Under the pieces are notes generated by a model, which was given only the letters and a program-made list of their open reading frames with translations, was not told the DNA's origin and did no database searches. Positions 1-18,650 of a stretch of 18,650 nt of DNA are shown in pieces. Source of the stretch: a virus; the UHGV virus genome UHGV-0185506. One strand, given 5' to 3'. Position numbers and translations under genes: made by a program. Position 1 is the stretch's first letter, and every line of letters starts with the position of its first letter.

Positions 1-2
1 CT

Positions 3-457: not shown

Positions 458-459
458 CA

Positions 460-783
460 GTGAGCACCATTCAAACAGGGATCACAGAGCAGGTTATTGC
501 GTGGCTCTTTGACCACCTGCCAACGGTGTATGCAGTAGGCGCGGCGGTCAGCATTTCCGCGCTGATGAGTCTTTATGACGGACGAACACTGGTTCAGACC
601 GTAACGGGATCGCTGGCGTGCGGCGTTCTTGCCATGGCCGTGGCCGGGTCGTTGCGCTTCTTCGGGTTTCCTGAAGATGCCGTGACGTTTATCGGCGCAT
701 CAATCGGTTTTATGGGTGCAGAGAAAGCACGCGACAAGGTTATTGCGGCCTTTAATCGCAGGGTGAAGGAGAAGGACGAATGA
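460..783 (+). CDS. Putative holin (not P2 gpY-like)
   Basis: GTG at 460 follows the X stop, with a G-rich SD (GGGGGGAG) upstream. Small protein with hydrophobic stretches and a charged C-terminus (RRVKEKDE). Sits directly upstream of the endolysin. The track ORF 241-783 is an upstream extension of the same frame. Confidence 0.55.
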   Translation: MSTIQTGITEQVIAWLFDHLPTVYAVGAAVSISALMSLYDGRTLVQTVTGSLACGVLAMAVAGSLRFFGFPEDAVTFIGASIGFMGAEKARDKVIAAFNRRVKEKDE

Positions 784-1172
784 GCAACACATTTAAATTC
801 AGCAGCCGGAGCGAAAAGAATTTGCAGGGCGTAAATCCTGATCTGGTGAAAGTAACCCGACGGGCACTGGAAATTTCGGAAGTGGATTTTGGTATCACCG
901 AAGGATTGCGCAGCCGTTACCGCCAGAAGCAACTTGTGGCCACAGGTAAGAGCCAGACCATGAACAGCCGCCACCTTACGGGACATGCCGTGGATGTTGT
1001 GGCTTATATCGGCAGCCAGGTGTCATGGGAATGGCCGCTGTACGAAAAAATCGCAGCAGCATTCAAACAGGCCAGCCGGGAACTGAATATTCCGGTGGAA
1101 TGGGGCGGCGACTGGAAGACCCTGAAAGACGGACCGCATTTTCAGTTACCACACGGAGCCTATCCGGCATGA
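780..1172 (+). CDS. Endolysin, peptidase M15 (VanY-like) type
   Basis: 130 aa with an HLTGHAVDV motif typical of zinc M15 peptidases. Occupies the lysis-cassette position between holin and spanins. Start overlaps the holin stop. Confidence 0.75.
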   Translation: MSNTFKFSSRSEKNLQGVNPDLVKVTRRALEISEVDFGITEGLRSRYRQKQLVATGKSQTMNSRHLTGHAVDVVAYIGSQVSWEWPLYEKIAAAFKQASRELNIPVEWGGDWKTLKDGPHFQLPHGAYPA

Positions 1173-1576
1173 AGCTCTGGCCCACGCTGGGTGTCGCTTT
1201 CCTTCTGATTGCCGCATGGGGAACATCCATGCGTCTGTCATGGTCGCTTGGCCGGGAGAACGCCAGAAACGAAGCGCAGGCCAGCGCCCTGAAAAGTACC
1301 GTCGACACCCTGAATATCATCAGCACCGGGGTACAGGATATGCAGCAGGTGCTGGCGCAACTCCGCGTGGAAAATCAACAGCGAAATCAGGACGGAGAGG
1401 CCAGACGTGAACAGCTACGCAACGATATTGCAAAAGATGAATGCGCCCACGCTTTGCCTGACGCTCGTTTTACTGACAGGCTGCGCAGGCACGCAGAACG
1501 CGCCACGGCCAGCGCCGTCAGTCCGGCTTATACCGCAGACGCTGACCATACCGGTAATGCCTCCCCCCTTCCCTGA
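1169..1576 (+). CDS. lysB: Spanin inner-membrane subunit (LysB / Rz-like)
   Basis: ATG at 1169 overlaps the endolysin stop. N-terminal TM segment (MKLWPTLGVAFLLIAAWG) followed by a Q/R/E-rich, coiled-coil-like periplasmic part. The track ORF 1025-1576 is an upstream extension of the same frame. Confidence 0.7.
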   Translation: MKLWPTLGVAFLLIAAWGTSMRLSWSLGRENARNEAQASALKSTVDTLNIISTGVQDMQQVLAQLRVENQQRNQDGEARREQLRNDIAKDECAHALPDARFTDRLRRHAERATASAVSPAYTADADHTGNASPLP

Positions 1577-1727
1577 CACTCCCACATGGGGAAATCTCGG
1601 TATATGGGGCGACCGCCTTCTGGATGCACTGGAAACCTGTAACGCGGATAAACGGGCCATTGAATTACTGGAACAGCGCAGGCTGCAACGACTGAACAAC
1701 GAGGACAACAACCATGCTGAAAACTGA
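1407..1727 (+). CDS. lysC: Spanin outer-membrane lipoprotein (LysC / Rz1-like), overlapping the lysB 3' end in another frame
   Basis: Lipobox LLTGC after a hydrophobic leader, then a proline-rich mature region. Classic Rz/Rz1 overlap. The true start may be the ATG at 1437 rather than 1407. Confidence 0.6.
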   Translation: MNSYATILQKMNAPTLCLTLVLLTGCAGTQNAPRPAPSVRLIPQTLTIPVMPPPFPDTPTWGNLGIWGDRLLDALETCNADKRAIELLEQRRLQRLNNEDNNHAEN

Positions 1728-2181
1728 TTCCCTGCGTGAAGCCATGACCCGTTCATGCCGATGGTGTCAGGCCAACCCGGAAAAATTCACCATTTTCGTG
1801 GAGAGCGGCAACATTGAAACGACCGGAGAAACTCCCTCGTTTGTTTACCGCTATCAGATGGTGATGTTTGTCATGGATTACGCCGGGGAGCTGGACGACC
1901 TCACGCTGCCGCTGCTGGCGTGGTTATCCGAAAATCAGCCGCAGTTGTTGCTCAATCCGGAGCGTAATCAGGACATCAAATTCTCCGCCGTTATCAATGA
2001 CGATGACAGCGCCGATCTCCTGTTTACGCTCCCCCTGCGGGAACGCGTTCGCATCACGCGCAGCAGTCAGGGCGCGCCGCAGGCAGAACACCTGCCGGAG
2101 CCAAAACCCCGCCTACCCTCTTCCGAAGGCGACTGGTCGCATGTATTCCAGGATGTGACGTGGGGTGAAAGCGATGGATAA
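1714..2181 (+). CDS. R: Tail completion protein R (P2 gpR-like)
   Basis: MLKTDSLREAMT...PLLAWLSENQP resembles the remembered P2 gpR. Position and length (155 aa) fit. Confidence 0.8.
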   Translation: MLKTDSLREAMTRSCRWCQANPEKFTIFVESGNIETTGETPSFVYRYQMVMFVMDYAGELDDLTLPLLAWLSENQPQLLLNPERNQDIKFSAVINDDDSADLLFTLPLRERVRITRSSQGAPQAEHLPEPKPRLPSSEGDWSHVFQDVTWGESDG

Positions 2182-2809
2182 GGCATTCACCCGCGTGGAT
2201 GAAACCTTTGAGGCCATCCGCGACAGCCTGAATCAGCAGGCCATCAATAACATCGCCAGAAAGCTGGCACAGGATTTACGCCGCGCCCAGCAGGCGCGTA
2301 TCCGGTCACAGAAAGCGCCGGACGGGACCGCGTGGACACCACGCAGACGCCGCGTAACCCGGATACAGGAGCGCATTCGCTTTATCTGGAATAACGAAGC
2401 ACGCACGCTGAAAAACTGGCATCACGACACGGGGAAATACGGGCGAACCATTACCGGGTGGGATGAGGATAAAAACAATATCCGCACGTTTTACCGGGAT
2501 GACATCGACCGTTTTCTGGAAATACGCACCCGGCGCATCAACCAGGACAGCACAAAGCGCGTCCCCATGTTCGTAAAACTGCGCACCGCCCGCTACCTGA
2601 AAGCCCGTGCAGATGCTTCCGGTGTGACGGTGGGTTACAGCGGCGTGGCCGCACGTATTGCCCGCGTTCATCAGTTCGGTGGGCGCGATCAGGTTGCGCC
2701 GGGCATTTTCACCGATTACCCGGTACGTGAGCTGCTGGGTATCAGCCAGGCAGATGAGCGCCTGATTTATAACACGGTGCTGGGCCGGATTGCGGAGGCT
2801 GTACGGTGA
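2174..2809 (+). CDS. S: Tail completion / virion morphogenesis protein S (P2 gpS-like)
   Basis: ATG at 2174 overlaps the R stop. Segment LAQDLRRAQQARIRSQKAPDGTAWTP is typical of the phage tail S family. Position fits. The track start at 2165 is a GTG three codons upstream. Confidence 0.7.
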   Translation: MDKAFTRVDETFEAIRDSLNQQAINNIARKLAQDLRRAQQARIRSQKAPDGTAWTPRRRRVTRIQERIRFIWNNEARTLKNWHHDTGKYGRTITGWDEDKNNIRTFYRDDIDRFLEIRTRRINQDSTKRVPMFVKLRTARYLKARADASGVTVGYSGVAARIARVHQFGGRDQVAPGIFTDYPVRELLGISQADERLIYNTVLGRIAEAVR

Positions 2810-3387
2810 GCGCAGAACTCATGCGGCTGCTGAGCAACATCATCCGCACCGGGATCATCTCTGAAGTTGATGAGGAATCCTGGCGCGTGCGCGTTCGCAG
2901 CGGCGAACTGGAAACAGGCTGGTTGCGCTGGAACACCACGCGCGCGGGAGCCTTCAATGTGTGGCTGCCGCCATCACCAGGCGAACAGGTGGTAATTGCC
3001 TGCATTGGCGGCAACCCGGAAACCGCCATGATAATTGGCAGCCTGTGGAGTGATGCCAGTCCGGCCCCCGGCAAAAGCCTGAAAGAAATCGTGGTCAGCG
3101 CGCCGGACGGCGCGGTGTTCCGCTACGACGCAGACGCTGGCGCACTGAGCGCCAGCGGCATGAAAACAGCCACCCTGCAGGCATCCGTCAGCGTGACACT
3201 GGATACGCCCGTCGTGGAATGCACAAACCTTCTGAGAACAGCGACGCTTGACGTCACAAAAGGGGGAAAGATGAGCGGCAATATCACGCACAGCGGCGGC
3301 GATTTCACCTCAAACGGCATCACAGTGCATACGCATAAGCACGGTGGCGTTAAAGGTGGCAGCGATTCGACAGGAGGCCCGCAGTGA
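2806..3387 (+). CDS. V: Baseplate spike / assembly protein V (P2 gpV-like)
   Basis: GTG start overlaps the S stop (GTGA). IRTGIISEVD...GWLRW and the C-terminal HTHKHGG...GGP motif match the remembered gpV. Confidence 0.85.
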   Translation: MSAELMRLLSNIIRTGIISEVDEESWRVRVRSGELETGWLRWNTTRAGAFNVWLPPSPGEQVVIACIGGNPETAMIIGSLWSDASPAPGKSLKEIVVSAPDGAVFRYDADAGALSASGMKTATLQASVSVTLDTPVVECTNLLRTATLDVTKGGKMSGNITHSGGDFTSNGITVHTHKHGGVKGGSDSTGGPQ

Positions 3388-3734
3388 CAACCCGCTACAC
3401 AGGAATGAACCCGGACGGAACGGGAAACCTGAACGATATGGAGCACCTGAAACAGTCAGTCAGGGACATCCTGACCACCCCGCTGGCCAGCCGGGTTATG
3501 CGACGGGAATATGGCAGCCTTGTGCCTGATTTGATTGACGAACCCATGAATAACACCACGCGTCTGCAATGCATGAGTGCTGCCGTGATTGCGCTGACAC
3601 GATGGGAACCCCGCATTGCCCTGGATGCCATCGACGTTGTCTGGAAAGCGGGAGGCCGCGCCGGGGTGACGCTGTCGGGCACTGTCATGCAGACCATGCA
3701 GAATGTTGAGTTAACCATCACGCTGAGGGAGTAA
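3384..3734 (+). CDS. W: Baseplate protein W (gp25-like)
   Basis: 116 aa, start overlaps the V stop. Position and size match P2 gpW. Confidence 0.8.
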   Translation: MTTRYTGMNPDGTGNLNDMEHLKQSVRDILTTPLASRVMRREYGSLVPDLIDEPMNNTTRLQCMSAAVIALTRWEPRIALDAIDVVWKAGGRAGVTLSGTVMQTMQNVELTITLRE

Positions 3735-3737
3735 ATC

Positions 3738-4634
3738 ATGCCCGCCGTTGACCTTTCCCAGTTACCGGAACCCGCCATCATCGCGGAGCCTGACTTTGAA
3801 GCAATTCTGGCTGACACAAAAGCCATGATGATTGCGTCCTATCCCGCCGAACAGCGTGAAGCCGTTTCCGCCGCGCTGGAGCTGGAATCGGAACCCCTGA
3901 ACGTTATCGCTCAAACCATGTCGTTTCGTGAAATGCTGTTACGCCAGCGGGTCAATGAGGGTGCACGCGCCTGCATGTTAAGCCACAGCGCCGGGACAGA
4001 CCTGGACAACCTCGCGGGCAATATGAACACAAAGCGCCTGGTTATCACTCCGGCAACGGATACCACCGACGCGGTGATGGAGAGCGACACCTCGCTGAGA
4101 CTGCGGGCGCAGCGGGCGTACGACGGCCTGAGTGTTGCTGGCCCGTCAGGTGCATACGAGTATTTTGCCCGCAGCGCCAGCGGTCTGGTGCGCGATGCGC
4201 GGGCTATCAGTCCGTCTCCGGCCTGTGTGACGGTTTCCATCCTGTCCACTGAAGGCGACGGCACAGCAACGGAGGCGTTGCTTAATACCGTTCGCGCCGT
4301 TCTGAATGCAGAGGATACCCGCCCGGTGGCCGACCGCCTGACCGTACAGAGCGCCAGAATCGTGACATGGCGGCTGAATGCAAAACTGTACTTTTACCCC
4401 GGCCCGGAATCCGAACCTATTCTGGCCGCGGCTGAATCGTCGTTCAGGAAGTGGCTGGCTGAGCAGGGGCTTATCGGTCAGGACGTGGCGTTGTCCGCCA
4501 TTGCTGCCGCACTGCATGTGCACGGTGTGCAACGCGTGGAGATAATCGAACCCACACAGAATATGGCCATCAGCGACATACAGGCGGCGCGCTGTGAGTC
4601 ATTCACCATCAGCGAAGGTGGGCGTAATGAGTAA
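3738..4634 (+). CDS. J: Baseplate protein J (P2 gpJ-like)
   Basis: 298 aa. SD GAGGGAG upstream of the ATG. Synteny W-J-I-H. Confidence 0.85.
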   Translation: MPAVDLSQLPEPAIIAEPDFEAILADTKAMMIASYPAEQREAVSAALELESEPLNVIAQTMSFREMLLRQRVNEGARACMLSHSAGTDLDNLAGNMNTKRLVITPATDTTDAVMESDTSLRLRAQRAYDGLSVAGPSGAYEYFARSASGLVRDARAISPSPACVTVSILSTEGDGTATEALLNTVRAVLNAEDTRPVADRLTVQSARIVTWRLNAKLYFYPGPESEPILAAAESSFRKWLAEQGLIGQDVALSAIAAALHVHGVQRVEIIEPTQNMAISDIQAARCESFTISEGGRNE

Positions 4635-5157
4635 TTCACTGTTACCGCCATCAGCCAGCAATTTCATGCGTTGTGCCGAAGCCGTCGGGACACGCATTAC
4701 AGACATTCCGGTAGACCTCAACACGCTGTGGTCGCCGGACACCTGCCCGGTACATCTGCTGCCTTATCTCGCCTGGGCGTTTTCCGTTGACCGCTGGGAT
4801 CGCAACTGGCCGGAAGAGACAAAGCGACAGGTGATTCGTGATGCATGGCTGATACACCGACACAAAGGAACCATCAGCGCCCTGCGACGAGCCATTGAAC
4901 CGCTGGGATACCTCATTCGCGTGTCTGAGTGGTGGGAGTTCGACGGAGAACCGGGAACATTTACCGTTGAAGTCGGCACGCTGGACAGCGGTGTGACGGA
5001 GGAAATGTATCTGGAAATGGAGCGGTTGATTGCTGATGCCCGCCCGGTCAGCCGCCACATGACAGGGCTGAATATCATTCAGGAGATCCAGGGGGATATT
5101 TTCGCGGCGGCGGCAACTTACGACGGTGAAGTTATTACCATTTATCCGGACGATTAA
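4627..5157 (+). CDS. I: Baseplate/tail protein I (P2 gpI-like)
   Basis: ATG at 4627 overlaps the J 3' end. 176 aa, the P2 gpI length as I recall it. The track start at 4594 is an upstream extension. Confidence 0.8.
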
Positions 5158-5159
5158 GC

Positions 5160-6815
5160 ATGAGTACCACAACACGAAAATTTAAAACCATTATCACTGA
5201 TACTGGTGCCCAAAAATTAGCTCAGGCCGCCGCGCCAGATGGTAAGCCTGTCCGCCTGACTCACATGGCCGTGGGCGACGGTGGCGGCACGTTGCCCACA
5301 CCAGACAGTAAGCAGACCTGTCTGGTGCATGAGGTGTGGCGACATACCGTTAATCGCGTCATCCTGGACGCAACACATCAGAACCGCATTATTGCGGAGC
5401 TGGTTATTCCTCCTGAAACGGGCGGATTCTGGGTCCGGGAAATTGGTGTGTTTGATGAGCACGGTGATTTAATTGCGGTGGGCAATACTGCCGAAAGTTA
5501 CAAGCCAACCGTTGCCGAAGGGTCCGGACGTGCGCAAACATTTCGTACCATCTTGACCGTATCCAGCACTGCCACCGTGGAGCTTACCGTGGATAACACC
5601 ATGGTTATGGCCACAGTGGATTACGTGGATGACAAACTGAAAGAGCATGAACAGTCACGACGTCACCCGGACGCCTCGTTGACCGCAAAAGGTTTTACTC
5701 AGTTAAGCAGCGCGACCAACAGTGAATCTGAAACGCTGGCTGCAACTCCGAAAGCGGTTAAGGCAGCGTATGACCTTGCTAACAGAAAATACACCGCTCA
5801 GGACGCCAGCACGGGGCGAAAAGGTCTTGTCCAGTTAAGCAGCGCCACTAACAGTGATTCGGAAACGCTTGCTGCGACTCCGAAAGCAGTGAAAGCAGCG
5901 AATGACAATGCAAACAAGCGAGTACCTAAAGGAGCGGGATTAAATGAGTACGCCGAAAATATAAGTGATATTGCTACTGATTTACGTACGCGTGGTGGCT
6001 TTTTTAATGCTCCCTCAGCAAAGAATGGAATGCCTGGAGGACACACCTGGAAGCACTACATCAACTCTGCACACAGCAATACTCAGGGATACAATACTGT
6101 TATTGGCATTGATTTTAATGGAGATGTAATCGGTTTTGCGGCAGTTTGCGCAGGTGTTTTTAAGGGGTGGAAGTTGATTCATCATGACGGGTATAGCAAC
6201 TTCCCGGTAGGCGCTGCGATCCCGTGGCCTTCTGATTCAGTACCAACAGGCTATGCAATTATGCAGGGGCAGACTTTTGATAAAGCAGCCTATCCCTTGC
6301 TCGCAGCAGCTTATCCGTCAGGGGTGATTCCAGATATGCGCGGCTGGATAATCAAGGGCAAGCCCGCCAGCGGGCGTGCTGTATTGTCACAGGAACAGGA
6401 CGGGATTAAATCGCATACTCACAGTGCCAGTGCGTCAAATACGGATTTAGGAACGAAAACGACCAGTTCATTTGATTACGGCACGAAGACAGTCAGTACG
6501 TTTAACCACGGAACAAAAACCACTAATACAACTGGTAACCATACACATACCATTTACAGAGGGAATGCCAATACTAATGGTGAAACCGGAAAAACAGGTT
6601 TTGACAACCCATCGTTTAATGGCACATCAGGAGCTGCCGGGAATCATGCCCACACGGTAGATATCGGCTCACATAATCATACGGTTGGTATTGGTGCCCA
6701 TACGCACACAGTGGCATTAGGTGCGCACGGGCACACCATCACGGTAAATGCTACGGGTAATTCAGAGAACACCGTAAAAAACATTGCATATAACTATATT
6801 GTGAGGCTCGCATGA
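5160..6815 (+). CDS. H: Tail fibre protein H: conserved P2-type N-terminus, mosaic C-terminus with HxH (gp37-like) repeats
   Basis: N-terminus [23 protein letters not shown]... and duplicated [22 protein letters not shown] motifs are hallmarks of P2-type fibres. C-terminus [36 protein letters not shown]...NYIVRLA matches the HxH-repeat ends of Stf/gp37-type fibres. Confidence 0.9.
5696..5898 (+). repeat. Imperfect tandem direct repeat of about 75-80 bp inside H, encoding the duplicated QLSSATNS(E/D)[14 protein letters not shown] motif
   Basis: Two near-identical DNA blocks starting near 5696 and 5819 (…cagttaagcagcgc…gaaacgct…gctgc…actccgaaagc…). Confidence 0.8.
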
Positions 6816-7678
6816 TTAAGTTAATTCTTTCAGAGCCAGTCCATGAAATGGCAGATGCGTTTAAACGCGTTTTTGGCAATACCGACAATGTGGACGTTGT
6901 AGAAAAACCATTTGAAGCAATCTCAGAATTTGACTGCATGGTAAGTGCGGCAAACAGTTTCGGGCTAATGGATGGCGGCGTGGATGCTGCCATTACCGCA
7001 TTTTTTGGTACTCAACTACAGACGCGTGTTCAGAATCATATTATTCGTGAATATCTTGGTGAACAGCCCGTAGGGTCTGCTTTTGTTATTGAAACGGGGC
7101 ATAATCATCACCCCTGGCTGGTACATGCGCCAACAATGCGTGTTCCGCTGACAATTGACGGAACAGACGCTGTATATAACGCCACGTGGGCCGCTCTGCT
7201 TGCCATCTTTCAGCACAATAAAAATGCAACGACAGACAGGAAAATAAAAACGGTGGTATTACCTGCAATGGGGGCCGGATGTGGTCAGGTGCCGTTTGAA
7301 AGTGTTGCCCGGCAGATGAAGCTGGCATGGGATAACTTTAATAAAACAGAATCAATTAACTGGGAATACGCATATTCCCGCCAGTGGGCGGTATTTAACA
7401 CATGTGCATACTGCCCCGGTAAATCTGGTTGTCGTTATGCTGATATTAAATATATTGGATGTGGTGATTACCGTACGTATTGCTTACGGTCAGGGCAGGT
7501 ATGTATTAACCCTGAACATCAGGTTGATGACGTGCTGACTAATAATCGCTCTCGCCCGGGGGCACATATACACCAGATTAATCCGGTAAAACCCGTAGGT
7601 AACGTTACCATTGGCGCACACAGCCACGGAAGGAATATCACCATTGGTGCTCATTCCCATACAACCAATAAACAATAA
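6812..7678 (+). CDS. Macro-domain (ADP-ribose binding/hydrolase fold) protein with a Cys-rich, HxH-repeat fibre-tip-like C-terminus
   Basis: ATG overlaps the H stop (ATGA), with SD GAGG upstream. Macro signature: [19 protein letters not shown] (compare NAAN..L..GGGV..AI), LVHAPTM (compare H-VGP), [14 protein letters not shown] (compare FPAISTGIYGYP). C-terminus carries CxxC...C...C and GAHIH/GAHSHG/GAHSHT repeats like the H tip. Confidence 0.6.
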
Positions 7679-7708
7679 TTCTGTCTCTGACATTAAGTAG
7701 AGGTGAAC

Positions 7709-8287
7709 ATGACTTTCAGAATGAGTGCTGAAGCACAAACCATTCGCGTATTTAATTATCTCGATGGTACAAATGAATTTATTGGTGAAAGCGATATGTA
7801 CATTCCACCACATACAGGCTTACCCGCAAACTGTACAGATATTGCACCTCCAGATATTCCGGCTGGCTATGCTGCCGTTTTCAATGCAGACGAAATGAAA
7901 TGGCATCTGATGGAAGACCATCGCGGAAAGACTGTATACGAAACGAAAACAGGAGCAGCAATTTATATTTCTGAGCTTGGAGCATTACCTCCTGACGTAA
8001 CAACAATTTCTCCGACTGGCAATTATCAGAAATGGAATGGTAATGTGTGGGTGGATGATGAAAATGCAGAGCATGATGCGCTTGTCAGAGCAGCTGAGTC
8101 TCAGAAAAAAGAACTACTCAGAAATGCAAGTGAAATAATCACTATCTTGCAGGATGCCGTTGATTTAAGCATTGCGACAAAGGAAGAAATAATGTTACTA
8201 AATGAGTGGAAGATGTATCGTATATTATTGAACAGGATTGATACATCAATGACACTAAATATCCAGTGGCCAACCTCCCCACAGTAA
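7709..8287 (+). CDS. Tail fibre assembly protein (gpG / Tfa family)
   Basis: Position directly after the fibre gene. C-terminal region (…[26 protein letters not shown]) matches the conserved tail-fibre-assembly C-terminal domain. SD GAGGTG before the ATG at 7709; the track start at 7703 is a GTG two codons upstream. Confidence 0.75.
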
Positions 8288-8294
8288 AAAAAAT

Positions 8295-8313
8295 AGCAGG
8301 CGATTCGCCTGCT
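8295..8313. terminator. Bidirectional intrinsic terminator between the convergent assembly and glycosyltransferase genes
   Basis: Hairpin agcaggcg-att-cgcctgct, flanked by an A8 run on the plus strand (a T8 run on the minus strand, directly after the minus-strand gene) and by ttaatt downstream. Confidence 0.7.
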
Positions 8314-8317
8314 TTAA

Positions 8318-9052
8318 TTAATTGCGGCTGGATAGTTTAAATTGTTTAATTTTTGCTTTTATGGTGTTTTTCAGCGAGTACGACGGCACCCATTTTAAAG
8401 CAACCTGCCAAGGACGAGGCGAGCCATGAAAACATACTATTCTGGCGTTTTCAGGCACTGACCCATTGGCCAAACCATCATGTAGTTCAGCATTGAAACC
8501 AATCATTTTAGGTGTGGCAATATTTGCTTTATAACTCACAATAAATCCGGGAAGAACATCCTGCCAACGTTCTGCGTCAGGATATATTTCACTGATAAAT
8601 CCCTGATCACCGTGATAAGGAGGTAATTTATTCCTGGACATTATCTGTTCAGCATTATCCTTGAAAGCATTCCAAGCACGGTATTTTTCCTTTGCTGGAA
8701 TAAACATAATACCAGAAGCAGCGGGAGCATTTTCTTTACCGACGCATGAGAAATCGGTAAGCATTGTCATATTCTGCAAATTGGTGAATTCATGTAGATC
8801 GCCCGTAATAACGGTATCGATATCTATATAAAGTATATCTTCCTTTCCAATAACAGGGTGTTCTGGATTGAATAATTCTATTTTCGCCCACCATCCCGGC
8901 CAATTATAAAGAAGCGGCGCAGTTTCTACTCCCTCAATGTAAACTGCGTCTGTTAAACATACTGAACGAATACCCCTGATTTGCTGGTGTAGCCATTGGG
9001 CATGCTTGGGGGTGAAATCTTTGCTACAACGAAGGACTGAAACAACCAGCAC
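8318..9052 (-). CDS. Putative GT-A fold glycosyltransferase, GT8-like (DxD motif); cargo (moron) gene
   Basis: GTG start at 9052 with SD AGGAG 6 nt upstream. WAKIEL...KEDILYIDIDTVITGDL parallels the remembered LgtC segment ARLKL...DKVLYLDIDVLVRDSL. ASGIMFIPAKEKYRAW parallels NAGVLLINLKKWRR. C-terminal FHGSPRPW resembles the GT8 HxxGxxKPW motif. AT-rich relative to the core phage genes. Confidence 0.5.
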   Translation of the reverse strand: MLVVSVLRCSKDFTPKHAQWLHQQIRGIRSVCLTDAVYIEGVETAPLLYNWPGWWAKIELFNPEHPVIGKEDILYIDIDTVITGDLHEFTNLQNMTMLTDFSCVGKENAPAASGIMFIPAKEKYRAWNAFKDNAEQIMSRNKLPPYHGDQGFISEIYPDAERWQDVLPGFIVSYKANIATPKMIGFNAELHDGLANGSVPENARIVCFHGSPRPWQVALKWVPSYSLKNTIKAKIKQFKLSSRN

Positions 9053-9080
9053 TACTTACTCCTAAATACACAACTGTAGA

Positions 9081-9108
9081 TATATAACTCGCGTTTATGA
9101 TATCACAA
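9081..9108 (-). promoter_or_regulatory. Candidate sigma70 promoter for the glycosyltransferase gene
   Basis: Minus-strand reading gives TTGTGA (-35; plus 9103-9108), a 16-nt spacer, then TATATA (-10; plus 9081-9086), about 25 nt upstream of the SD, in an AT-rich spacer. Confidence 0.35.
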
Positions 9109-9334
9109 ACAAAAGCATAAAACTTACCCACATAAGTAGAGTCATATAGTCTCTGCCAATATAATGAGTGACTATTTCACTAAGCTTTCATCGAAACAAT
9201 AGACCTAGAGTTAAGCTATTAATCACTCTAACAAGGTAGAGATATTGATTTTGCTATACCGACGTTTTGTCAGTACTTCCCCAGCAAGACACAACATGAA
9301 GTCGGCACAGTTTTTGAAGTTATTTAAGGAACAG

Positions 9335-9374: not shown

Positions 9375-9869
9375 TCAGAACACCCCTTTAACTGAACTGG
9401 CTGCGCTGTTAAGGGATGACGTCACCTTATCTTTGAAGCCGGACAGCATATCACTGAACGATGAGGATTGCAGGCGCTCCCGCAAATCCTCATCACAGCG
9501 TTCAAGAGTCAGTGAAAATTCTATCTTTTTCGCCTTACCGTAGCGATCAAACTCGGAACGGGTCGTATTCGTTTCAGTCAGTACATACATGCCGTAAATC
9601 TGCCCAACACCATCAATCAGAGGCCAGGGGCGTCCTGTATATGCCTGCGTGGTCAGCAACGAAAGCGACACTTCGCCACCTGTAATTTCAGGATAAAGCA
9701 CGCCGGAAAGCACGATGCGATCATCACCTGCGCCGATATACTGCCAGCTTGCTGAACGGTTAACGCGTTCATTTTTCACATGCCGCCAGCTTTTGTTTTG
9801 CTGTAACAGCTGATGCGGCAATGTGCGCAGCTCAAAAACAAACATGCCGTAGATCATCATCATGGCCAT
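9375..9869 (-). CDS. U: Tail protein U (P2 gpU-like)
   Basis: …FVFELRTLPHQLLQQNKSWRHVKNERV…YPEITGG…WPLIDGVGQIYGMYVL matches the remembered gpU. Follows T on the same strand. Confidence 0.85.
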   Translation of the reverse strand: MAMMMIYGMFVFELRTLPHQLLQQNKSWRHVKNERVNRSASWQYIGAGDDRIVLSGVLYPEITGGEVSLSLLTTQAYTGRPWPLIDGVGQIYGMYVLTETNTTRSEFDRYGKAKKIEFSLTLERCDEDLRERLQSSSFSDMLSGFKDKVTSSLNSAASSVKGVF

Positions 9870-9875
9870 GACTCC

Positions 9876-12719
9876 TCAATCTTTATCGTAAAAACTGCCA
9901 CGTCCGGCACGGTCGCGTCGTTCCAATTCTGCCCTGACCATTTCACCGACCAGTTTCGCCAGTTCGCGGGGATTCTGCGTAACAACGTTATGCAGATGAA
10001 CATGAATTTCACCGCCAAATCCGGAGACAACAGGCTCCCGGTTACGGGAAGTTGCAGGAACTGATGCCACTGGCGATCGTATGGCCTCCGCCACCGGGCG
10101 GGAGCTGGCCGCAACAACAGGGACCAGCGCCGGAGGCAGAGGAGTCTGGACCACGGGTGTGATGTTGATTGCGGAAGCAGGCTTACTGACCTGCGCAATC
10201 TTCCGCTCCTGCCACTCCCCACGAACAGCAAGTGCGCGGGGCAGGTTCTTAAAGACAATATCGCCGGGGCCAATGCGTTTTTTCGTCTCATCAACCAGCT
10301 TACCTGTGTTATCAGCAATTTTGCTGAGTCTGCGTAGCGTACCGGTATTGCTGTCTGTGAGCGGTTTGTTGTCTTTGGGTTTATCACCTCCGGTGCCATT
10401 GCCATTTTCCACAAGCTTCGGCGGATTGATTTTCGCCAGGTCCCCCTGAAGCAAGGCAACCTTGTCCTGAAGAATGGCCGCACGCTGTGCGTCTTCGATT
10501 TTCTTGCGCGCCCTTTCCGCTTCATCCGGAAGCACACCGAGCTTTTCAAGTATCCACGCCAGCGTATCCAGCAACATTTTTGCAGGTGTCAGAACAAGTT
10601 GTAACGCACCACCAAGAACGTTACCGAATATCTCGCCAGCACTGGTACATTTATCCAGCGTTTCCTTGCTGGACTCCATCGGTGACAGCAGCGATTTAAA
10701 CCAGTTAAACACCTGGCTTATCCCGCTTCCGATTGCGTCAAAAACAGGACCAAACCGTTCAAAGGTTTCGCGCAACGGGGTCAGCCTTTCCATAATCCCG
10801 CTGAACACCCCGGCAAAAAATGCCCTGATGGGATCCCAGTATTTCCAGATAAGAACGGCAGCTCCGGCAAGCGCAGCCACGATAAGACCAACCGGACTGA
10901 ACAGCGCCCCGATAGCGCCTCCCAGCAAAGAAACGGAACCCGTCACCATTCCCCATAGTGCTGGCAGGAGCCTGACAGCATTCATTGATCTGGTCAGGAG
11001 GGAAAAACCAAGACGCAGTTTTGCCAGTGGACCAGCAAGCACACCAAGAGCAAGCGACAACGAGCCTACGGTTGCAGTCACTGCCAGCAGCGCACCGCCT
11101 GCAATCAGTAGCTGGCGCGTCAGTACAGGATGGGCCTGCGCCAGTGCCGTCACCTTTGAGACCACCCGCGTTAGCCACTGCGTGACAGAACGCAGCGAAC
11201 CGTCAACCAGATCACTGATGCGAATACGAAGACCTTCCCATGCGCTGTCGAGATTTTTCAGGTCGCCATCAAGGTTGTCGGCCATAACCTTTGCTGTGCG
11301 TTCAGCCTCACCGCGTGCGCCCTCAAGTTCTTTTCTCAGTTTGGGTAAGGAACCGTCACCCGCCGCATCAACGAGCGCCATAAACGATGTGAAAGCCTCT
11401 TCCCCGGCGATGTCCTTAAAGAAGGATACCCGGTCAACTTCCCCGTATTTGCGGGTAGCTTTATAAAGGTCAGCCAGCAGATCTTCCATCGGGCGCATTT
11501 TGCCCCCGGCATCCGAGACGGACACGCCCAGCTCTTTCAGAGCTTCTGCCGCCGCCTTTGGCGGTGATGCCAGACGAGCCAGGCTGGCACGCATTGCCGT
11601 CCCGGCATCACTCCCCCTGATGCCCATATTCGCCAGCACGCCCGCCATAGCTGCGGCCTGCTCCAGCGATATTCCCAGCTTACCCGCCACCGGACCTGCA
11701 TATTTCATGGTTTCGCCCAGTGCGCGAAGGTCAGTGTTGGTACGGGTAAACGCTGCGGTGAGTGTGTCACCGACCCGGTCCATCTGGTCAGCAGAAAGGC
11801 CGAACTGCGTCAGGATATTTGAGCCAATATCCGCCGTCTCGCCGAGATCCATACCGCCAGCCGTTGCCATGCTCAGCACGCCGGGAAGCGCAGCCTGAAT
11901 GGCCTGCGGAGTGAAGCCAGCCATTGCAAGAAATGCCTGTCCACTGGCGGCATCGCCTGCGGTGAACTGCGTTTCAGAGCCAAGTTTTAACGCCTGCTCA
12001 CGCAGCGCCTTAAACTGCGGGCTGTTTTTGTCGATTCGCGTCAGTGCCTGAACGCGGGACATCTCTTTCCCGAACCCGATCGCGGGCTGTAAAAAACGCC
12101 CGGCAGCATAGCCGCCCGCCGCTGCCGCACCAATTGCCAGCGCACCACCTGTTTTCAGTTTTCCCGCTGTTTCCTGCGCGCGCGAATACCGCTCACGCGC
12201 CTGCGTTACACGTGCAAGCGCCTGCCGTTCGCGTTCAAGCTGGTTGTTGTATTGTTCGGTGCGTCTGATGGCCTGCTGGATGGTGTTATCACTGCCTGTC
12301 AGGGAAATGCCGTGGCGTTTCAGCTCTCCGCCAAGCTCCCGCATTTTCTGAATTTCCCGTGCGCGCGATTCATTCAGGCGTTCAAGCCGGGTGCTTAACT
12401 GCTGCATCAGCTTTTGTTGTTTTTCGCTGAGCACTGCCCCCGTGCGTTGTAACTGATTAAGGGCGTTAAGTTGGCGTCGTGCTTTCACGATGCCAGCATC
12501 CGCTTTACTGACAGCGTCGCGGGCGCGCTCAAATGATCGCGCCTGACGCTCGAGATTTTTGATCGCCCCCTGCGTTCGCTGGATGGAGTCACCAAACTGC
12601 CCCATCAGGCGGCGTGCGTTTTCGGCAGGTCGGGTCAGCCTGTCAACGGCGCTGAAAGCGACCCGGATATCAAGAGTCTTCATCGTCTGCATTCCCACTG
12701 CGAAGTGCCGCCCGCTCAC
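9876..12719 (-). CDS. T: Tail tape measure protein T
   Basis: 947 aa, Ala/Gln/Arg-rich and coiled-coil-like, with internal hydrophobic segments. Position after E/E' and before U. Confidence 0.9.
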   Translation of the reverse strand: MSGRHFAVGMQTMKTLDIRVAFSAVDRLTRPAENARRLMGQFGDSIQRTQGAIKNLERQARSFERARDAVSKADAGIVKARRQLNALNQLQRTGAVLSEKQQKLMQQLSTRLERLNESRAREIQKMRELGGELKRHGISLTGSDNTIQQAIRRTEQYNNQLERERQALARVTQARERYSRAQETAGKLKTGGALAIGAAAAGGYAAGRFLQPAIGFGKEMSRVQALTRIDKNSPQFKALREQALKLGSETQFTAGDAASGQAFLAMAGFTPQAIQAALPGVLSMATAGGMDLGETADIGSNILTQFGLSADQMDRVGDTLTAAFTRTNTDLRALGETMKYAGPVAGKLGISLEQAAAMAGVLANMGIRGSDAGTAMRASLARLASPPKAAAEALKELGVSVSDAGGKMRPMEDLLADLYKATRKYGEVDRVSFFKDIAGEEAFTSFMALVDAAGDGSLPKLRKELEGARGEAERTAKVMADNLDGDLKNLDSAWEGLRIRISDLVDGSLRSVTQWLTRVVSKVTALAQAHPVLTRQLLIAGGALLAVTATVGSLSLALGVLAGPLAKLRLGFSLLTRSMNAVRLLPALWGMVTGSVSLLGGAIGALFSPVGLIVAALAGAAVLIWKYWDPIRAFFAGVFSGIMERLTPLRETFERFGPVFDAIGSGISQVFNWFKSLLSPMESSKETLDKCTSAGEIFGNVLGGALQLVLTPAKMLLDTLAWILEKLGVLPDEAERARKKIEDAQRAAILQDKVALLQGDLAKINPPKLVENGNGTGGDKPKDNKPLTDSNTGTLRRLSKIADNTGKLVDETKKRIGPGDIVFKNLPRALAVRGEWQERKIAQVSKPASAINITPVVQTPLPPALVPVVAASSRPVAEAIRSPVASVPATSRNREPVVSGFGGEIHVHLHNVVTQNPRELAKLVGEMVRAELERRDRAGRGSFYDKD

Positions 12720-12888
12720 GCCAGCTAACCACTTCGCCGGGCGTCATCATGAAGATTTCGGCGGGCGACCAGTTAAAAATAACGGCAATATCTGCCACAA
12801 AGTCTTCTATGTGCTCAAAGCACACAACCGTGATCAGGCTTCCGTCGCCTGTTCGTTCTTCCCGCCAGAGTCCGCACCGCTCAAAAAA
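12670..12888 (-). CDS. E': E' extension: -1 frame segment fused to E by programmed frameshift to give E+E', overlapping the T start
   Basis: The -1 frame is open from 12918 to 12670 and bridges the E stop to the T start. Slippery heptamer T TTT TTG on the minus strand at 12888-12882, read as N-F-L in frame 0 and as F-F-E after slippage. Confidence 0.7.
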   Translation of the reverse strand, partial: FFERCGLWREERTGDGSLITVVCFEHIEDFVADIAVIFNWSPAEIFMMTPGEVVSWRERAALRSGNADDEDS

Positions 12889-13202
12889 TTTACGGCAACC
12901 ACACATAACTGAATAAAGTCACGGGATGCCATTTTTTTGATCGTCACTTCATCCAGTCGCGGTGATGTCACGCGCGACAACAGCGTAAACATGGATTCCG
13001 CTTTCAGATTCAGCACATCAGACAGCGACAGACCACGCAGGGATCCAGCCTGCTCAATAGCCCCGGTGATCTCCACATACGTGATTTTTTCGTCGCCTCG
13101 CTCAATTGGTTGGGTAAGTTTTACGCCGCGCTCGCTGGTTTCTTTCGCAGTATCAGCAACCACCACAGCGTTTTCAGTATCGGTATTTTTCGTCTCTTTC
13201 AT
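12834..13202 (-). CDS. E: Tail assembly chaperone E (P2 gpE-like)
   Basis: 122 aa, acidic, between the tube gene and T. Contains the T TTT TTG slip site near its 3' end. Confidence 0.8.
   Translation of the reverse strand: MKETKNTDTENAVVVADTAKETSERGVKLTQPIERGDEKITYVEITGAIEQAGSLRGLSLSDVLNLKAESMFTLLSRVTSPRLDEVTIKKMASRDFIQLCVVAVNFLSGADSGGKNEQATEA
12882..12888 (-). other. Programmed -1 ribosomal frameshift slippery heptamer T TTT TTG
   Basis: Plus strand caaaaaa at 12882-12888 gives minus-strand TTTTTTG in the X XXY YYZ register of the E frame. Confidence 0.7.
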
Positions 13203-13256: not shown

Positions 13257-13769
13257 TCAGCCAAGCCCAAGCGCGGAACGGATGCGATCGGGCACAATGT
13301 CCTTGCCGTCCTTCCGGTAAATAAAGTTCAGCAGGTCAATCTCCCACAACGGGCGATCGTTAACACTCAGCTTGTAGTAGGTGTTTTTAATGGCGTAAGT
13401 GTGTGATGTGGCTTCGCCCTGTTTGGCTTCCCCCATATCAATTTCCGTCACACGTCCGCGCATTTCGACTTCATACAGGTCGCTTTCTGCATCGGTGTAG
13501 TATTCACCCGCAAAACGCAGCAGCGTGCCGTCAATCGTGCCACCATACTTAAGGAACAGCTCACGAACTGCGCCCCCCATGACAAAGCTCGCATCAAGCG
13601 CGGAGTCGTCCAGACCGAGATCAATACTTACCGCACCCATCATGCCGCCCCCCCGGTAGCTGTCGGTTTTGCGCGTCAGCTTAGGCAGAGTGACGGACGT
13701 CACCTTACCCACTTCGTTTTCACCATCCACAAACAGCGTAAAAAAGCGAAGATGTTTTGGCACAGCCAT
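13257..13769 (-). CDS. FII: Tail tube protein FII
   Basis: MAVPKHLRF…VTLPKLTRKTDSYRGGGM…LGLDD matches the remembered P2 FII. Start overlaps the FI stop (TGATG). Confidence 0.9.
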   Translation of the reverse strand: MAVPKHLRFFTLFVDGENEVGKVTSVTLPKLTRKTDSYRGGGMMGAVSIDLGLDDSALDASFVMGGAVRELFLKYGGTIDGTLLRFAGEYYTDAESDLYEVEMRGRVTEIDMGEAKQGEATSHTYAIKNTYYKLSVNDRPLWEIDLLNFIYRKDGKDIVPDRIRSALGLG

Positions 13770-14953
13770 CAGGCACCTCCCAACACCGCAAATGCGGGTT
13801 CAAAGTATTCATCAGTAAACGTCTGGTAAAGCTCCATGTCTTCCAGTGGCGGAACGGGCGTATATTTGTAGCGAATACGCACACGCCCCTGACGTAAATC
13901 CGTGGTGCTGTTATCCACCACGTCATACCAGCACTCCGCGCCAATCAGTTTCCCGGCAGTAACCAGTGAATCCAGCTTTGCCCTGATGGCACTGATAACA
14001 TCCTTCACGTTCGCAGGCGTCAGTGGACTGTCGATGGTTTCAAACTGCGCTTCCGCAATTGAATCAGCCAGCACCTGTGCGGTTCGGGTATACACCTCAA
14101 AGATGTAGGCGTTCGTTTCCGGTGTGCGATTGCCCCAGAAGCGGAACCCGTTGCGACGAATAATGGTCGTGATTTCTTTGTTGTTGAGGCTGTTGGCATC
14201 ACTGTCTTCGGCCTGCAACGACCAGAACACATGCCTGGACATTCCCAGCACATTTTTAACCGGAACGTTGGACAGCGATTTGTGCCAGCCCTGCTCATGG
14301 TCAATGTACGCACGAAGGCCGCACGCATAGGCAGGCGCGGGGAACGTTTCGTTTTCGCCACTTTTCGGGTTGTAGGCGATGAAGTCCGGCCATAAGAGCA
14401 TCACTTCACGTTCGTTGAATTTCTGGCGGTAGGTAATCGCTTCAGCCATCGTGTTACAGCCGTGACATGAGGCATACACAAACGCGCGCAGTTTACCCGC
14501 AATCACGCACAGGGATTTTGTCACCGCCTCCGTGTCCAGCTCCGGCGCGGCCAGAATACGCGGACGGTATCCGATGCTTTCATCCTGCTCTGCAACAAGC
14601 AGCGCATACATCCCCGTATAGCTGCCGTCATCCTCAGAACCACCGATAACCAGTTGATCCTGCGTCTTACCGTCTTCTTCTTTGTGTTCAGCCACGCGAA
14701 CGACGATCACCTTTGTGCTCACCTGGTCTGCGATGGCCTTAAGCGCACGATAAAGCGTCCCCGTTGTTCCGCATTTTCCCAGCACGTCATTGACGCGGGT
14801 CAGCAGTGTGGGCTTGTTCAGCGGGAACAGCTTCGCGTCCGCATCATCCGCCGTTGCCACGATACCGATAACGCTGGAATCAACATCGTTAATCGCTGTT
14901 ACCAGGTCGGTATTTTCCGTAACACGGGCACCATGAAAACGAGTTTCACTCAT
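13769..14953 (-). CDS. FI: Tail sheath protein FI
   Basis: Strong match to the remembered P2 FI across its length (…DADAKLFPLNKP…AIADQ…CGLRAYIDHEQGWHKSLSNV…RRNGFRFWGNRT…YTPVPPLE). SD AAGGGG upstream. Confidence 0.95.
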   Translation of the reverse strand: MSETRFHGARVTENTDLVTAINDVDSSVIGIVATADDADAKLFPLNKPTLLTRVNDVLGKCGTTGTLYRALKAIADQVSTKVIVVRVAEHKEEDGKTQDQLVIGGSEDDGSYTGMYALLVAEQDESIGYRPRILAAPELDTEAVTKSLCVIAGKLRAFVYASCHGCNTMAEAITYRQKFNEREVMLLWPDFIAYNPKSGENETFPAPAYACGLRAYIDHEQGWHKSLSNVPVKNVLGMSRHVFWSLQAEDSDANSLNNKEITTIIRRNGFRFWGNRTPETNAYIFEVYTRTAQVLADSIAEAQFETIDSPLTPANVKDVISAIRAKLDSLVTAGKLIGAECWYDVVDNSTTDLRQGRVRIRYKYTPVPPLEDMELYQTFTDEYFEPAFAVLGGA

Positions 14954-15034
14954 AGCTTCAGCCCCTTGTATCCGTTAAATGATTCGGCAACAATCATCAC
15001 CCACCACGCGCGTAATCTCACCCCTGCGCCGTTC

Positions 15035-15051
15035 TTGTCGCCCGGCGACAA
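15035..15051. promoter_or_regulatory. Perfect 17-bp palindrome TTGTCGCCCGGCGACAA in the divergent FI/D intergenic region; candidate activator site
   Basis: Seen directly in the sequence. Centred about 90 nt upstream of the FI ATG and about 68 nt upstream of the D ATG. The function is inferred, not shown. Confidence 0.3.
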
Positions 15052-15110
15052 CAAAAAGCAGTAACCCCGCCCGCACACACATGCGACCATGCCGCACAGG
15101 GAGGGAGCAG

Positions 15111-16220
15111 ATGACCGATACCACCATGCAATTGCTCAGTCAGGGCACAGACCCCGTGAAAATGCCGGATTTTGATATTCTTGCGGAGGGTAAAACGCTG
15201 TCAGGCGTGGCAGAGCGCCTGATGAGCCTGTCACTGACCGACAACCGGGGATTTGAGGCGGACCAGCTCACCATCACGCTGGATGATGCGGATGGTCAGT
15301 TGCAGCTACCGCCACGGGGCGCGCGCCTGACGGTTCTCATTGGCTGGAAAGGAGAACCGCTGACAGAAAAAGGCACTTACATTGTTGATGAAATCGCTCA
15401 CGAAGGACCGCCAGACAGGCTGACAGTTTCAGCCAGAAGCGCAGATTTTCGGGATGAATTTAACGTTAAACGTGAGGTGTCCTGGCATGATGTGACCGTT
15501 GAGCGTGTGGTATCCGCCATCGCTCATCGGTATGGTCTGAAACCGCAAATCAGCGAAATGCTGATGGATATCGAAATCGACCACGCCGACCAGACCGAAG
15601 AAAGCGACATGTCCTTCCTTACGCGCATGGCGGAAATGCTGGGCGCAATCACTACGGTAAAAAGCGGTAATCTGTTATTCATCATGCCAGGCGGTGGCGT
15701 GAACGCGCAGGGCCAGCCGTTGCCCTCGTTCGCCATCACACGCAGCAGCGGCGATCGCCATCAGTTCCGCATTGCTGACCGAGAGGCGTATACGGGGGTA
15801 CGCGCTTACTGGCTTGATCTTAATTACGGGAAAAAGAAAAAAGTCAGCGTGAAACGCCGCAAACCGCAAAAACCCAAAAAGGAGAAAAGCAGCAGCCGTG
15901 AAGGTGATTATATGGAAGGCGCGGAAGGCAATGTGTTTGTGTTACGCAAGACTTATCAGAACGAGCAGGCAGCAAGACGCGCAGCGGCGGCAAAGTGGCA
16001 GCAGCTACAACGCGGAGCCGCATCATTCTCCATCACGCTGGCGCGTGGACGCGCAGAACTCTATCCCGAAATGCATGGCACGGTAGCAGGCTTTAAAAGC
16101 GAGATTGATAATCAGGACTGGATTATTGCAAAAGCCGAGCACACCATTGATAACAGCGGCTTTACCACGCAGCTTGAGCTTGAGGCAAAAATCCCGGAAT
16201 GGATAGCGGAAACAGAGTGA
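15111..16220 (+). CDS. D: Late tail gene D product (P2 gpD-like)
   Basis: ATG at 15111 with SD GAGGGAG. …LSLTDNRGFEADQLTITLDDADG…RSADFRDEFNVKREVSWHD…ITRSSGDRHQFRIADREAYTGVRA…WLDLN… matches the remembered gpD throughout. The track ORF start at 14979 is an upstream extension. Confidence 0.9.
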   Translation: MTDTTMQLLSQGTDPVKMPDFDILAEGKTLSGVAERLMSLSLTDNRGFEADQLTITLDDADGQLQLPPRGARLTVLIGWKGEPLTEKGTYIVDEIAHEGPPDRLTVSARSADFRDEFNVKREVSWHDVTVERVVSAIAHRYGLKPQISEMLMDIEIDHADQTEESDMSFLTRMAEMLGAITTVKSGNLLFIMPGGGVNAQGQPLPSFAITRSSGDRHQFRIADREAYTGVRAYWLDLNYGKKKKVSVKRRKPQKPKKEKSSSREGDYMEGAEGNVFVLRKTYQNEQAARRAAAAKWQQLQRGAASFSITLARGRAELYPEMHGTVAGFKSEIDNQDWIIAKAEHTIDNSGFTTQLELEAKIPEWIAETE

Positions 16221-16261
16221 GCAACTTAGAATAGCGGCAGCACTACGTTAAGGGGGTTGCC

Positions 16262-16522
16262 ATGTTCCGTTGTCCGCTTTGTGGCGCATCTGCCCGTATC
16301 CGCACCAGTCGTTCGGAAAATGATTCAGATACCGTACGGAAAAAATATTACCAGTGTAACAACCTGGAATGCGGCGTATGCTTCTCAACACTGGAAGCTT
16401 TCCATAAATTCACATCGAAACACGCCTCCGGCGTTCACTCTTCAGATGGTATCCCGTGGCATGAGCTGCCAGCTTCACACAGGGGAAACAATCAGATGAG
16501 TTTGCCTTTACCTCAGAATTAA
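16262..16522 (+). CDS. ogr: Late gene transcription activator, Ogr/Delta zinc-finger family
   Basis: MFRCPLCGASARIRTSR…YYQCNNLECGVCF carries the CxxC…CxxC arrangement and N-terminal similarity to the remembered P2 Ogr. SD AAGGGGG upstream. Confidence 0.85.
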   Translation: MFRCPLCGASARIRTSRSENDSDTVRKKYYQCNNLECGVCFSTLEAFHKFTSKHASGVHSSDGIPWHELPASHRGNNQMSLPLPQN

Positions 16523-16712
16523 CAGGCAGAATTGCCGGAGCAACAAAAAAGCGATAGATTACGCGCGGGTGCCTTTCGGCTGATGGTCGGAGGGAATACC
16601 CGAAGGCCAGATGTGGAAAGGCCCCGGAAAACATTTTTGTTTAACCGAGGCCCTAACCGTCTACCCTAAGCAAGTGATAGGTTAGCGCCTCCCCGAAAAA
16701 GGAGCAAGCGCT

Positions 16713-16853
16713 ATGTCGCAAAAATCGCTTATGGCCATCACGTTCTGCGTGACGGCAATCCTCATCATCTGGATGCTGCACGGTTCGCTGTGCGAAATAC
16801 GGATGAGCTTCTGGGGAGCGGAGTTTGCGGCGTTCTTACAGTGTAAGCAGTAA
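16713..16853 (+). CDS. Hok/Gef-family type I toxin (46 aa); absent from the ORF track because of its length
   Basis: Translation MSQKSLMAITFCVTAILIIWMLHGSLCEIRMSFWGAEFAAFLQCKQ. One TM helix followed by the SLCEIR…AAF signature, as in Hok (…[23 protein letters not shown]). SD AAGGAG 6 nt upstream of the ATG. Confidence 0.65.
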   Translation: MSQKSLMAITFCVTAILIIWMLHGSLCEIRMSFWGAEFAAFLQCKQ

Positions 16854-16942
16854 GGAAACCGCGACGGGGGAGCAATCCCCCGTCAATCGGTTGCCAGGGT
16901 AAGGTCGATAAGGCACCCTATCTCACAGACATGAACAACAAA

Positions 16943-16974
16943 CCCGCAGCATAAAAACTGCGGGTTTTCTTTTT
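16943..16974 (+). terminator. Intrinsic terminator downstream of the hok-like gene
   Basis: CCCGCAG-cataaaaa-CTGCGGG followed by ttttcttttt. Confidence 0.7.
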
Positions 16975-17120
16975 GGTGTCCTCACCGACTTGAAACAGTG
17001 ATCAGACTATAAGACAAAGCCCACAATGTAGCGGGCTTACTCCCCTCCCCCCACTAAATGTGGACACATCGTGGAACGAAGAGATATAAAACATTATAAA
17101 TCAATTGGTTATTGAAAGAA

Positions 17121-17150
17121 AAAAGGCCGCAGAGCGGCCTTTTTAGTTAG
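17121..17150 (-). terminator. ihfA intrinsic terminator (bidirectional hairpin)
   Basis: aaaaaa-GGCCGC-agag-GCGGCC-ttttt immediately downstream of the ihfA stop. Confidence 0.75.
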
Positions 17151-17156
17151 ATCAGA

Positions 17157-17456
17157 TTACTCGTCTTTGGGCGAAGCGTTTTCGACCCGGCTTTTTAACT
17201 TCTGCCCTGGTCTGAAGGTCACCACGCGCCGTGCTGTAATGGGAATATCTTCGCCCGTTTTCGGGTTACGTCCCGGACGTTGATTCTTATCACGCAGATC
17301 GAAGTTACCAAAGCCAGAGAGTTTTACCTGCTCGCCGTTTTCCAGAGCGCGACGGATCTCTTCGAAAAACAGTTCAACCAGTTCTTTGGCATCCCGCTTG
17401 CTAAGCCCAAGCTTATCAAACAGATATTCTGACATTTCAGCTTTTGTAAGCGCCAT
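17157..17456 (-). CDS. ihfA: Integration host factor alpha subunit
   Basis: 99-aa translation ([99 protein letters not shown]) matches E. coli IhfA as I recall it. Confidence 0.95.
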
Positions 17457-17460
17457 AGGT

Positions 17461-18650
<1,190 letters not shown>

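Follow-up and report, generated by a model that had tools for sequence, protein, structure and literature searches.

The late promoters of phage P2 have the consensus TGT-N12-ACA, as quoted in PMC3931495, and the inverted repeats to which the activator Ogr binds are centred near -55, with Ogr contacting the alpha subunit of RNA polymerase (PMC3152322). In the P2 GenBank record (NC_001895), a single activator site between positions 3057 and 3087 serves the divergent promoters pP and pO, whose transcription start sites are at 3016 and 3127, respectively. This site reads TGT-N12-CCA, is centred at 3071.5, and lies 55.5 bp from each start. No papers on the late promoters of P88-like phages were found.

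The window (the whole stretch of 18,650 nucleotides analysed here, from UHGV virus genome UHGV-0185506) contains a P88-like prophage (Xuanwuvirus, Peduoviridae) adjoining ihfA/pheT, and its region 14400-15700 showed 98% DNA identity to Escherichia phage P88. The leftward late operon on the minus strand starts with FI, the tail sheath gene (13769-14953; Pfam Phage_sheath_1), followed by FII (13257-13769; Phage_tube), E (12834-13202), the tape-measure gene T (9876-12719; PhageMin_Tail), and U (9375-9869; Phage_P2_GpU). The rightward unit on the plus strand starts with D, encoding the baseplate hub / late control D protein (15111-16220; Phage_GPD, E=4e-17), and continues with ogr, encoding a zinc-finger late activator of the Ogr/Delta family (16262-16522; Ogr_Delta PF04606, E=2.4e-14). 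The FI-U block is inverted relative to D-ogr. The 86-aa Ogr protein of the window was 35% identical to P2 Ogr, with the four zinc-finger cysteines (C4, C7, C32, and C37) aligned, and by analogy with P2 it is presumably the protein that binds the site between FI and D.

The 157-bp gap between the divergent genes FI (minus strand) and D (plus strand) contains the exact 17-mer TTGTCGCCCGGCGACAA at positions 15035-15051, a perfect dyad composed of two 8-bp arms (TTGTCGCC and GGCGACAA) around one central C. The initial annotation had reported this palindrome and described its spacing as TGT-N9-ACA, not N12. The sequence of the palindrome was confirmed, and the N9 reading of its bases is correct, but N12 spacing is present as well: the right side reads ACAACA, and thus the same bases give both TGT-N9-ACA and an exact match to the P2 consensus, TGT-N12-ACA (TGTCGCCCGGCGACAACA, 15036-15053). 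TGT-N12-ACA by itself gave no signal in the window (2 matches versus 4.6 expected) and is therefore uninformative alone, so that the question of spacing was settled by comparing relatives. In the whole window, two perfect palindromes had arms of 8 bp or more and a spacer no longer than 1, versus 0.77 expected; this is not a significant enrichment, as 17% of dinucleotide shuffles also reached two. The only other palindrome of this class, AGCAGGCGATTCGCCTGCT at 8295-8313, has 9-bp arms and is located between the end of a plus-strand tail-fibre assembly gene and the minus-strand ORF 8318-9052; because it lies between convergent genes, it is probably a terminator-like element.

The perfect 17-mer was found in none of 81 close relatives, and among 240 related loci no arms longer than 5 bp were detected at the F/D site, the window being the sole exception. 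Of 5,426 complete E. coli genomes, 1,370 contained the FI/D intergenic region itself, whereas the exact 60-mer around the palindrome was found in a single one (strain AH19B041). The window allele differs by a single C-to-T change at 15038 from the allele TTGCCGCCCGGCGACAA, which is carried by phage Chuche, APEC E12053, RM9088, and 94-3024; this change completes the palindrome, and the TGT at 15036-15038 that the window allele creates is absent from the common alleles. In the register of the conserved site described below, the TTGCCGCCCGGCGACAA-type allele reads TCT-TGCCGCCCGGCG-ACAAC and is less common than the commonest allele of the close relatives, TCT-CCCGCCACGGCG-ACAAC. The right arm of the palindrome is a conserved half-site plus adjoining spacer, while the left arm is variable spacer. 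The C-to-T change would thus have fallen in an unconstrained spacer and made it complementary to the conserved right half GGCGACAA. An allele so rare, one nucleotide away from a commoner allele without TGT, suggests neutral drift of the spacer. As judged from these alleles, the palindrome is an accident of one allele and not a functional unit, with only the outer half-sites conserved.

The close-relative set comprised eighty IMG/VR contigs with a 99% identical D protein, together with P88, Shae_phiSM, and Chuche. When the 42 distinct versions of the 157-bp gap were compared, variation clustered at 15030-15046, covering the palindrome's left arm and centre, whereas TTCT (15032-15035) and the block GACAACAAAAAGCAGTAACC (15047-15066, plus strand), consisting of the right half-site and an A-tract facing D, were invariant. 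The conserved bases delimit a putative Ogr-type activator site, TCT-N12-ACAAC, at 15033-15052 (plus strand) with its centre at 15041.5, in which the left half TCT (15033-15035) and the right half ACAAC (15048-15052) flank a spacer at 15036-15047. In this family register, TCT-N12-ACA (15033-15050) has one mismatch to the P2 consensus, and the exact TGT-N12-ACA match of the window allele lies 3 bp to its right.

A distant set of 160 further loci was collected by searching with the D protein of 3LV2017 and that of phiT5282H. The divergent FI/D arrangement was found in all 160, and it is also present in Novemvirus (phiT5282H), Reginaelenavirus (3LV2017), and Serratia phage KSP20. T[GC]T-N12-ACAAC was detected upstream of D in 159 of the 160 loci, with a distance from the site centre to the D start of mostly 66-76 bp and, in a few cases, 82-105 bp (69.5 bp in the window). 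The spacers of these distant sites numbered dozens and were unrelated in sequence. The half-sites are fully symmetric, GTTGT-N12-ACAAC, in KSP20-like and 3LV2017-like phages, and the left half is (G)TTCT or GGTCT in Xuanwuvirus and Novemvirus. The conserved element with canonical N12 spacing therefore spans four Peduoviridae genera, which contradicts the initial proposal of an activator site with variant spacing.

The late-promoter region between P and O lies outside the window and was examined in AH19B041, P88, 3LV2017, phiT5282H, and the paired IMG/VR contigs. In the AH19B041 prophage, whose F/D allele is that of the window, the P/O site is TGTTCT-GGCCGTTTTCTT-ACAACAAAAGCC, a bipartite site without a palindrome. 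The P/O sites of P88-like, Novemvirus, and Reginaelenavirus phages (e.g., P88 14216-14235) resembled the F/D sites in the motif T(C/G)T-N12-ACAAC(AAAA), in orientation, and in the left-half variant of each phage; however, their spacers were unrelated to those at F/D, and none was palindromic with its own half-sites. The sequence ACAACAAAA(A/G) recurred facing O at the P/O sites of P88, phiT5282H, and AH19B041. The element was present at both F/D and P/O in all 61 IMG/VR contigs where both regions could be paired, and its left-half type matched within each contig (34 TGT/TGT, 27 TCT/TCT, and none mixed), although the spacers differed. Since the paired lineages are not independent and the half-site match rests on two or three clades with few independent lineages, this result supports one shared binding protein per phage and is not a formal covariation statistic. 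T[GC]T-N12-ACAAC has low information, with about 2 chance matches expected per 36-kb genome; in whole-genome scans, 3LV2017 and phiT5282H gave matches only at the F/D and P/O divergent regions, and P88 gave these and two intragenic matches. The initial annotation was borne out in taking the FI/D gap as the sole control region for the FI operon and D/ogr and in placing a P2-type (Ogr) activator element there. Its suggestion that the same dyad should recur at other late promoters held for the N12 element, found at both regions, but not for the 17-bp palindrome, which is absent from the P/O region of AH19B041.

A third, pV-like site was sought in the window using GTTST-N12-ACAAC with at most 1 mismatch, and only an intragenic match in T and one in pheT were found. 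The genes O through G appear to form one long plus-strand block in window 1-8300, P88, 3LV2017, and phiT5282H, and in these sequences neither a pV-like site nor an S-V intergenic gap was detected; accordingly, the four late promoters of the clade may be served by just two bidirectional activator sites. Inside T, an exact TCT-N12-ACAAC match in sense orientation (window 10598-10617, minus strand) is conserved in P88 (28823-28842, minus strand). It is probably a chance match, given the number expected per genome and its absence from 3LV2017 and phiT5282H. A 22-mer in the lysB-like (DUF2570) gene is located at 1240-1261 of the window and at 18642-18663 of P88 (both minus strand); its P88 version, GTTCTCCCGGCCCAGCGACCAC, matches some F/D alleles at 20 of 22 positions including the spacer. 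This 22-mer is accompanied by neither ACAAC, an A-tract, nor a -10-like hexamer at the right distance.

All four promoter directions of the window prophage, P88, 3LV2017, and phiT5282H were aligned on the site centre. In every direction and in each of the four phages, a -10-like hexamer ended 48.5 bp from the centre. For the leftward promoter PF (FI-FII-E-T-U), the predicted -10 is GATGAT (14993-14998, minus strand), with a predicted start at about 14986 ahead of the FI ATG at 14953. For the rightward promoter PD (D-ogr), the predicted -10 is GACCAT (15085-15090, plus strand), with a predicted start at about 15097 and a leader of only about 14 nt, which includes the Shine-Dalgarno sequence GGGAGGGAG (15099-15107, plus strand) before the D ATG at 15111. 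Both predicted starts would be some 55.5 bp away from the centre (15041.5). The corresponding hexamers at the P/O region, outside the window, are CATCAT for PO and TAATCT for PP. In the PF column, GATGAT was also found in 3LV2017, and GATTAT in phiT5282H; in the PD column, 3LV2017 has AACCAT versus GACCAT in the window, and a conserved CGCGCGCG/CGCACACA block precedes (A/G)ACCAT in both, although GACCAT and GATGAT are weak hexamers chosen by position. A promoter scan of the gap found no match to the sigma-70 -35/-10 consensus, as would be expected if the promoters depend on an activator.

Two further observations concern these promoter regions. The 12-mer AGATTACGCGCG occurred twice in the window versus 0.07 expected, once in the PF core region (15007-15018, minus strand) and once just after ogr (16556-16567, plus strand), behind GCAACAAAAAAGC and upstream of a hok-like gene. 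A third copy with 1 mismatch is located in the P/O gap of P88 (14176-14187, plus strand), where its reverse complement supplies the PP -10 TAATCT; the 12-mer may belong to a promoter core that these regions have in common, or another factor may bind it. In phiT5282H, the annotated FI start (NC_049429 gpFI; locus 2016-2057) is 37.5 bp from the site centre, and the FI protein exceeds its homologues by 14 amino acids; translation probably begins 42 bp downstream of the annotated start.

The features by which an Ogr site is recognised were found together at this locus: an inverted repeat TGT-N12-ACA (exact at 15036-15053), a cognate Ogr/Delta zinc-finger gene in the same phage (16262-16522), a position upstream of the late morphogenetic genes FI and D without a recognisable sigma-70 -35, and the same element at other late promoters, as tested in the P/O regions of relatives. 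We consider it likely that the locus is a P2-type late activator site common to the two divergent promoters PF and PD, with the palindrome as an accidental feature. The prophage's own Ogr would presumably bind T(C/G)T-N12-ACAAC at 15033-15052 and, by analogy with P2, recruit RNA polymerase via its alpha subunit to weak promoters without a -35 element, with transcription starting about 55 bp from the middle of the site. Given its rough symmetry and its position between divergent genes, this one site most likely serves both promoters, driving PF leftward and PD rightward.

An unlikely alternative is that the site activates PF only, with D and ogr transcribed otherwise, for example from a promoter in the gap that needs no activator or, in the case of ogr, from one of its own. 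The predicted PD -10 GACCAT is indeed poor and its leader very short, and the -10-like sequence AACTTAGAAT (16223-16232) in the D-ogr gap resembles the P2 ogr -10, so that ogr need not depend on PD. However, D has no other upstream region, no sigma-70 consensus promoter was detected in the gap, and almost all of the 159 loci, across genera, keep the D ATG 66-76 bp from the centre of the site. The (A/G)ACCAT hexamer at the same column of 3LV2017 and the window, behind its conserved block, and the P2 precedent of one site for two divergent promoters likewise argue for activation in both directions. A rightward shift of the register is less probable still: Ogr would then use the new TGT-N12-ACA (15036-15053) or the palindromic TGT-N9-ACA in this allele, and the shift of 1.5-3 bp would alter the balance between PF and PD. 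The exact consensus match at 15036-15053 and the occurrence of TGT as the half-site of related clades are consistent with such a shift, but this phage group has TCT at both sites, including the P/O site of the same-allele prophage AH19B041, the N9 spacing was found in no relative, and the allele is a single-nucleotide variant, seen in just one of the 5,426 genomes, of a commoner allele without TGT.

It is very improbable that the palindrome serves as the operator of another dimeric regulator (a phage repressor, Cox, or a host factor) or as a structural element such as a cruciform, hairpin, terminator, or insulator, although it has perfect 8-bp arms inside a regulatory gap and a predicted stem of 7 bp with a 3-nt loop (dG -6.4 kcal/mol). 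The left arm occupies the most variable columns and was conserved in none of the 240 relatives, which argues against a separate operator, and no second copy of the 17-mer within 3 mismatches was found in the window; the proposal of a site for another regulator in the initial annotation was therefore not supported. Its proposal of a structural insulator fared no better. The hairpin was no more stable than those of shuffled sequences (z = -0.95), and no T-run follows the stem on either strand. A terminator scan gave one match, a weak stem beside the palindrome (15056-15072) that overlaps it only by its tail. Two units that diverge need neither a terminator nor an insulator in between, and with the predicted starts outside the palindrome the element would not be transcribed. 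An intrinsic terminator, a structural hairpin, and a conserved palindromic operator were all rejected on these grounds.

Further features of the right part of the window and of the AH19B041 prophage were recorded. The 41-bp D-ogr gap contains AACTTAGAAT on the plus strand, similar to the annotated P2 ogr -10 AACTAAAAT (NC_001895 23996-24002), and from this similarity ogr probably keeps its own promoter besides read-through from PD. Downstream of ogr is an ORF for a Hok/Gef-type small toxin (16713-16853, plus strand; MokW-like in the P88 annotation), followed by strong hairpin terminators at 16863-16884 and 16940-16967. The prophage end falls between ogr and ihfA. An Rfam search gave nothing at the palindrome locus, and its sole match in the window was the STnc540 sRNA (17071-17215, minus strand) at the prophage/ihfA junction. 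In the AH19B041 prophage (locus 20428-24259), D is disrupted, with a VgrG/Pvc8-annotated fragment and an inserted ORF, and an IS481 element follows ogr; this prophage is likely defective. The tail-fibre region of the window (approximately 5775-9334) did not align to AH19B041, which is 94-97% identical elsewhere, indicating mosaicism.

These results matter little beyond annotation: they locate the element controlling the late genes in a prophage family that is very common in E. coli. The rule known from P2, with TGT-N12-ACA near -55 and one site able to serve two divergent promoters, would carry over to a rearranged order of tail genes, and the natural series of spacer alleles could be used to test which bases are read by Ogr. 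The locus also gives a caution, as drift beside a conserved half-site can leave a promoter region with a perfect palindrome. Taken together, the observations allow a broader picture, which we offer tentatively as plausible but somewhat short of probable. The late regulon of Xuanwuvirus, Novemvirus, Reginaelenavirus, and KSP20-like phages would be run by two bidirectional Ogr sites, P/O and F/D, without a separate pV; F/D would derive from inversion of the pF-FI...U block beside an orphaned D; Ogr specificity would have shifted to the TCT left half in Xuanwuvirus and Novemvirus; and the window allele would be a natural point mutant that adds a consensus register shifted by 3 bp.

The F/D element is an ordinary addition to the well-characterised P2-type late activator sites. 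Like the pP/pO site of P2, it is a single N12 inverted repeat between divergent late operons, with an Ogr-family activator encoded in the same genome and no -35 consensus. The P2 site lies about 55 bp from each annotated transcription start, and both -10-like hexamers of the window, which would specify the predicted starts at F/D, end 48.5 bp from the centre of the F/D site, where Ogr would presumably bind. The two sites differ in their halves, with TCT on the left in the window versus TGT in P2 and a right half extended as ACAACAAAA in the window, and in the operons paired, P/O in P2 and FI/D in the window. Without the inversion of the FI-U block relative to P2, FI and D would not be paired. 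In P2, the homologous FI-FII-E-T-U-D operon is driven by pF (activator site 17555-17583; transcription start site 17626-17628), and the distal half-site GTTGT is found in both, as GGTTGTG at P2 pF and as TTTTTGTTGT on the FI sense strand of the window. We infer that the F/D site arose by inversion of the pF-FI...U block, which put the roughly symmetric site of pF beside D. P2 pF is unidirectional, with D as the last gene of its operon, whereas D of the window is split off and would be read divergently from the same site.
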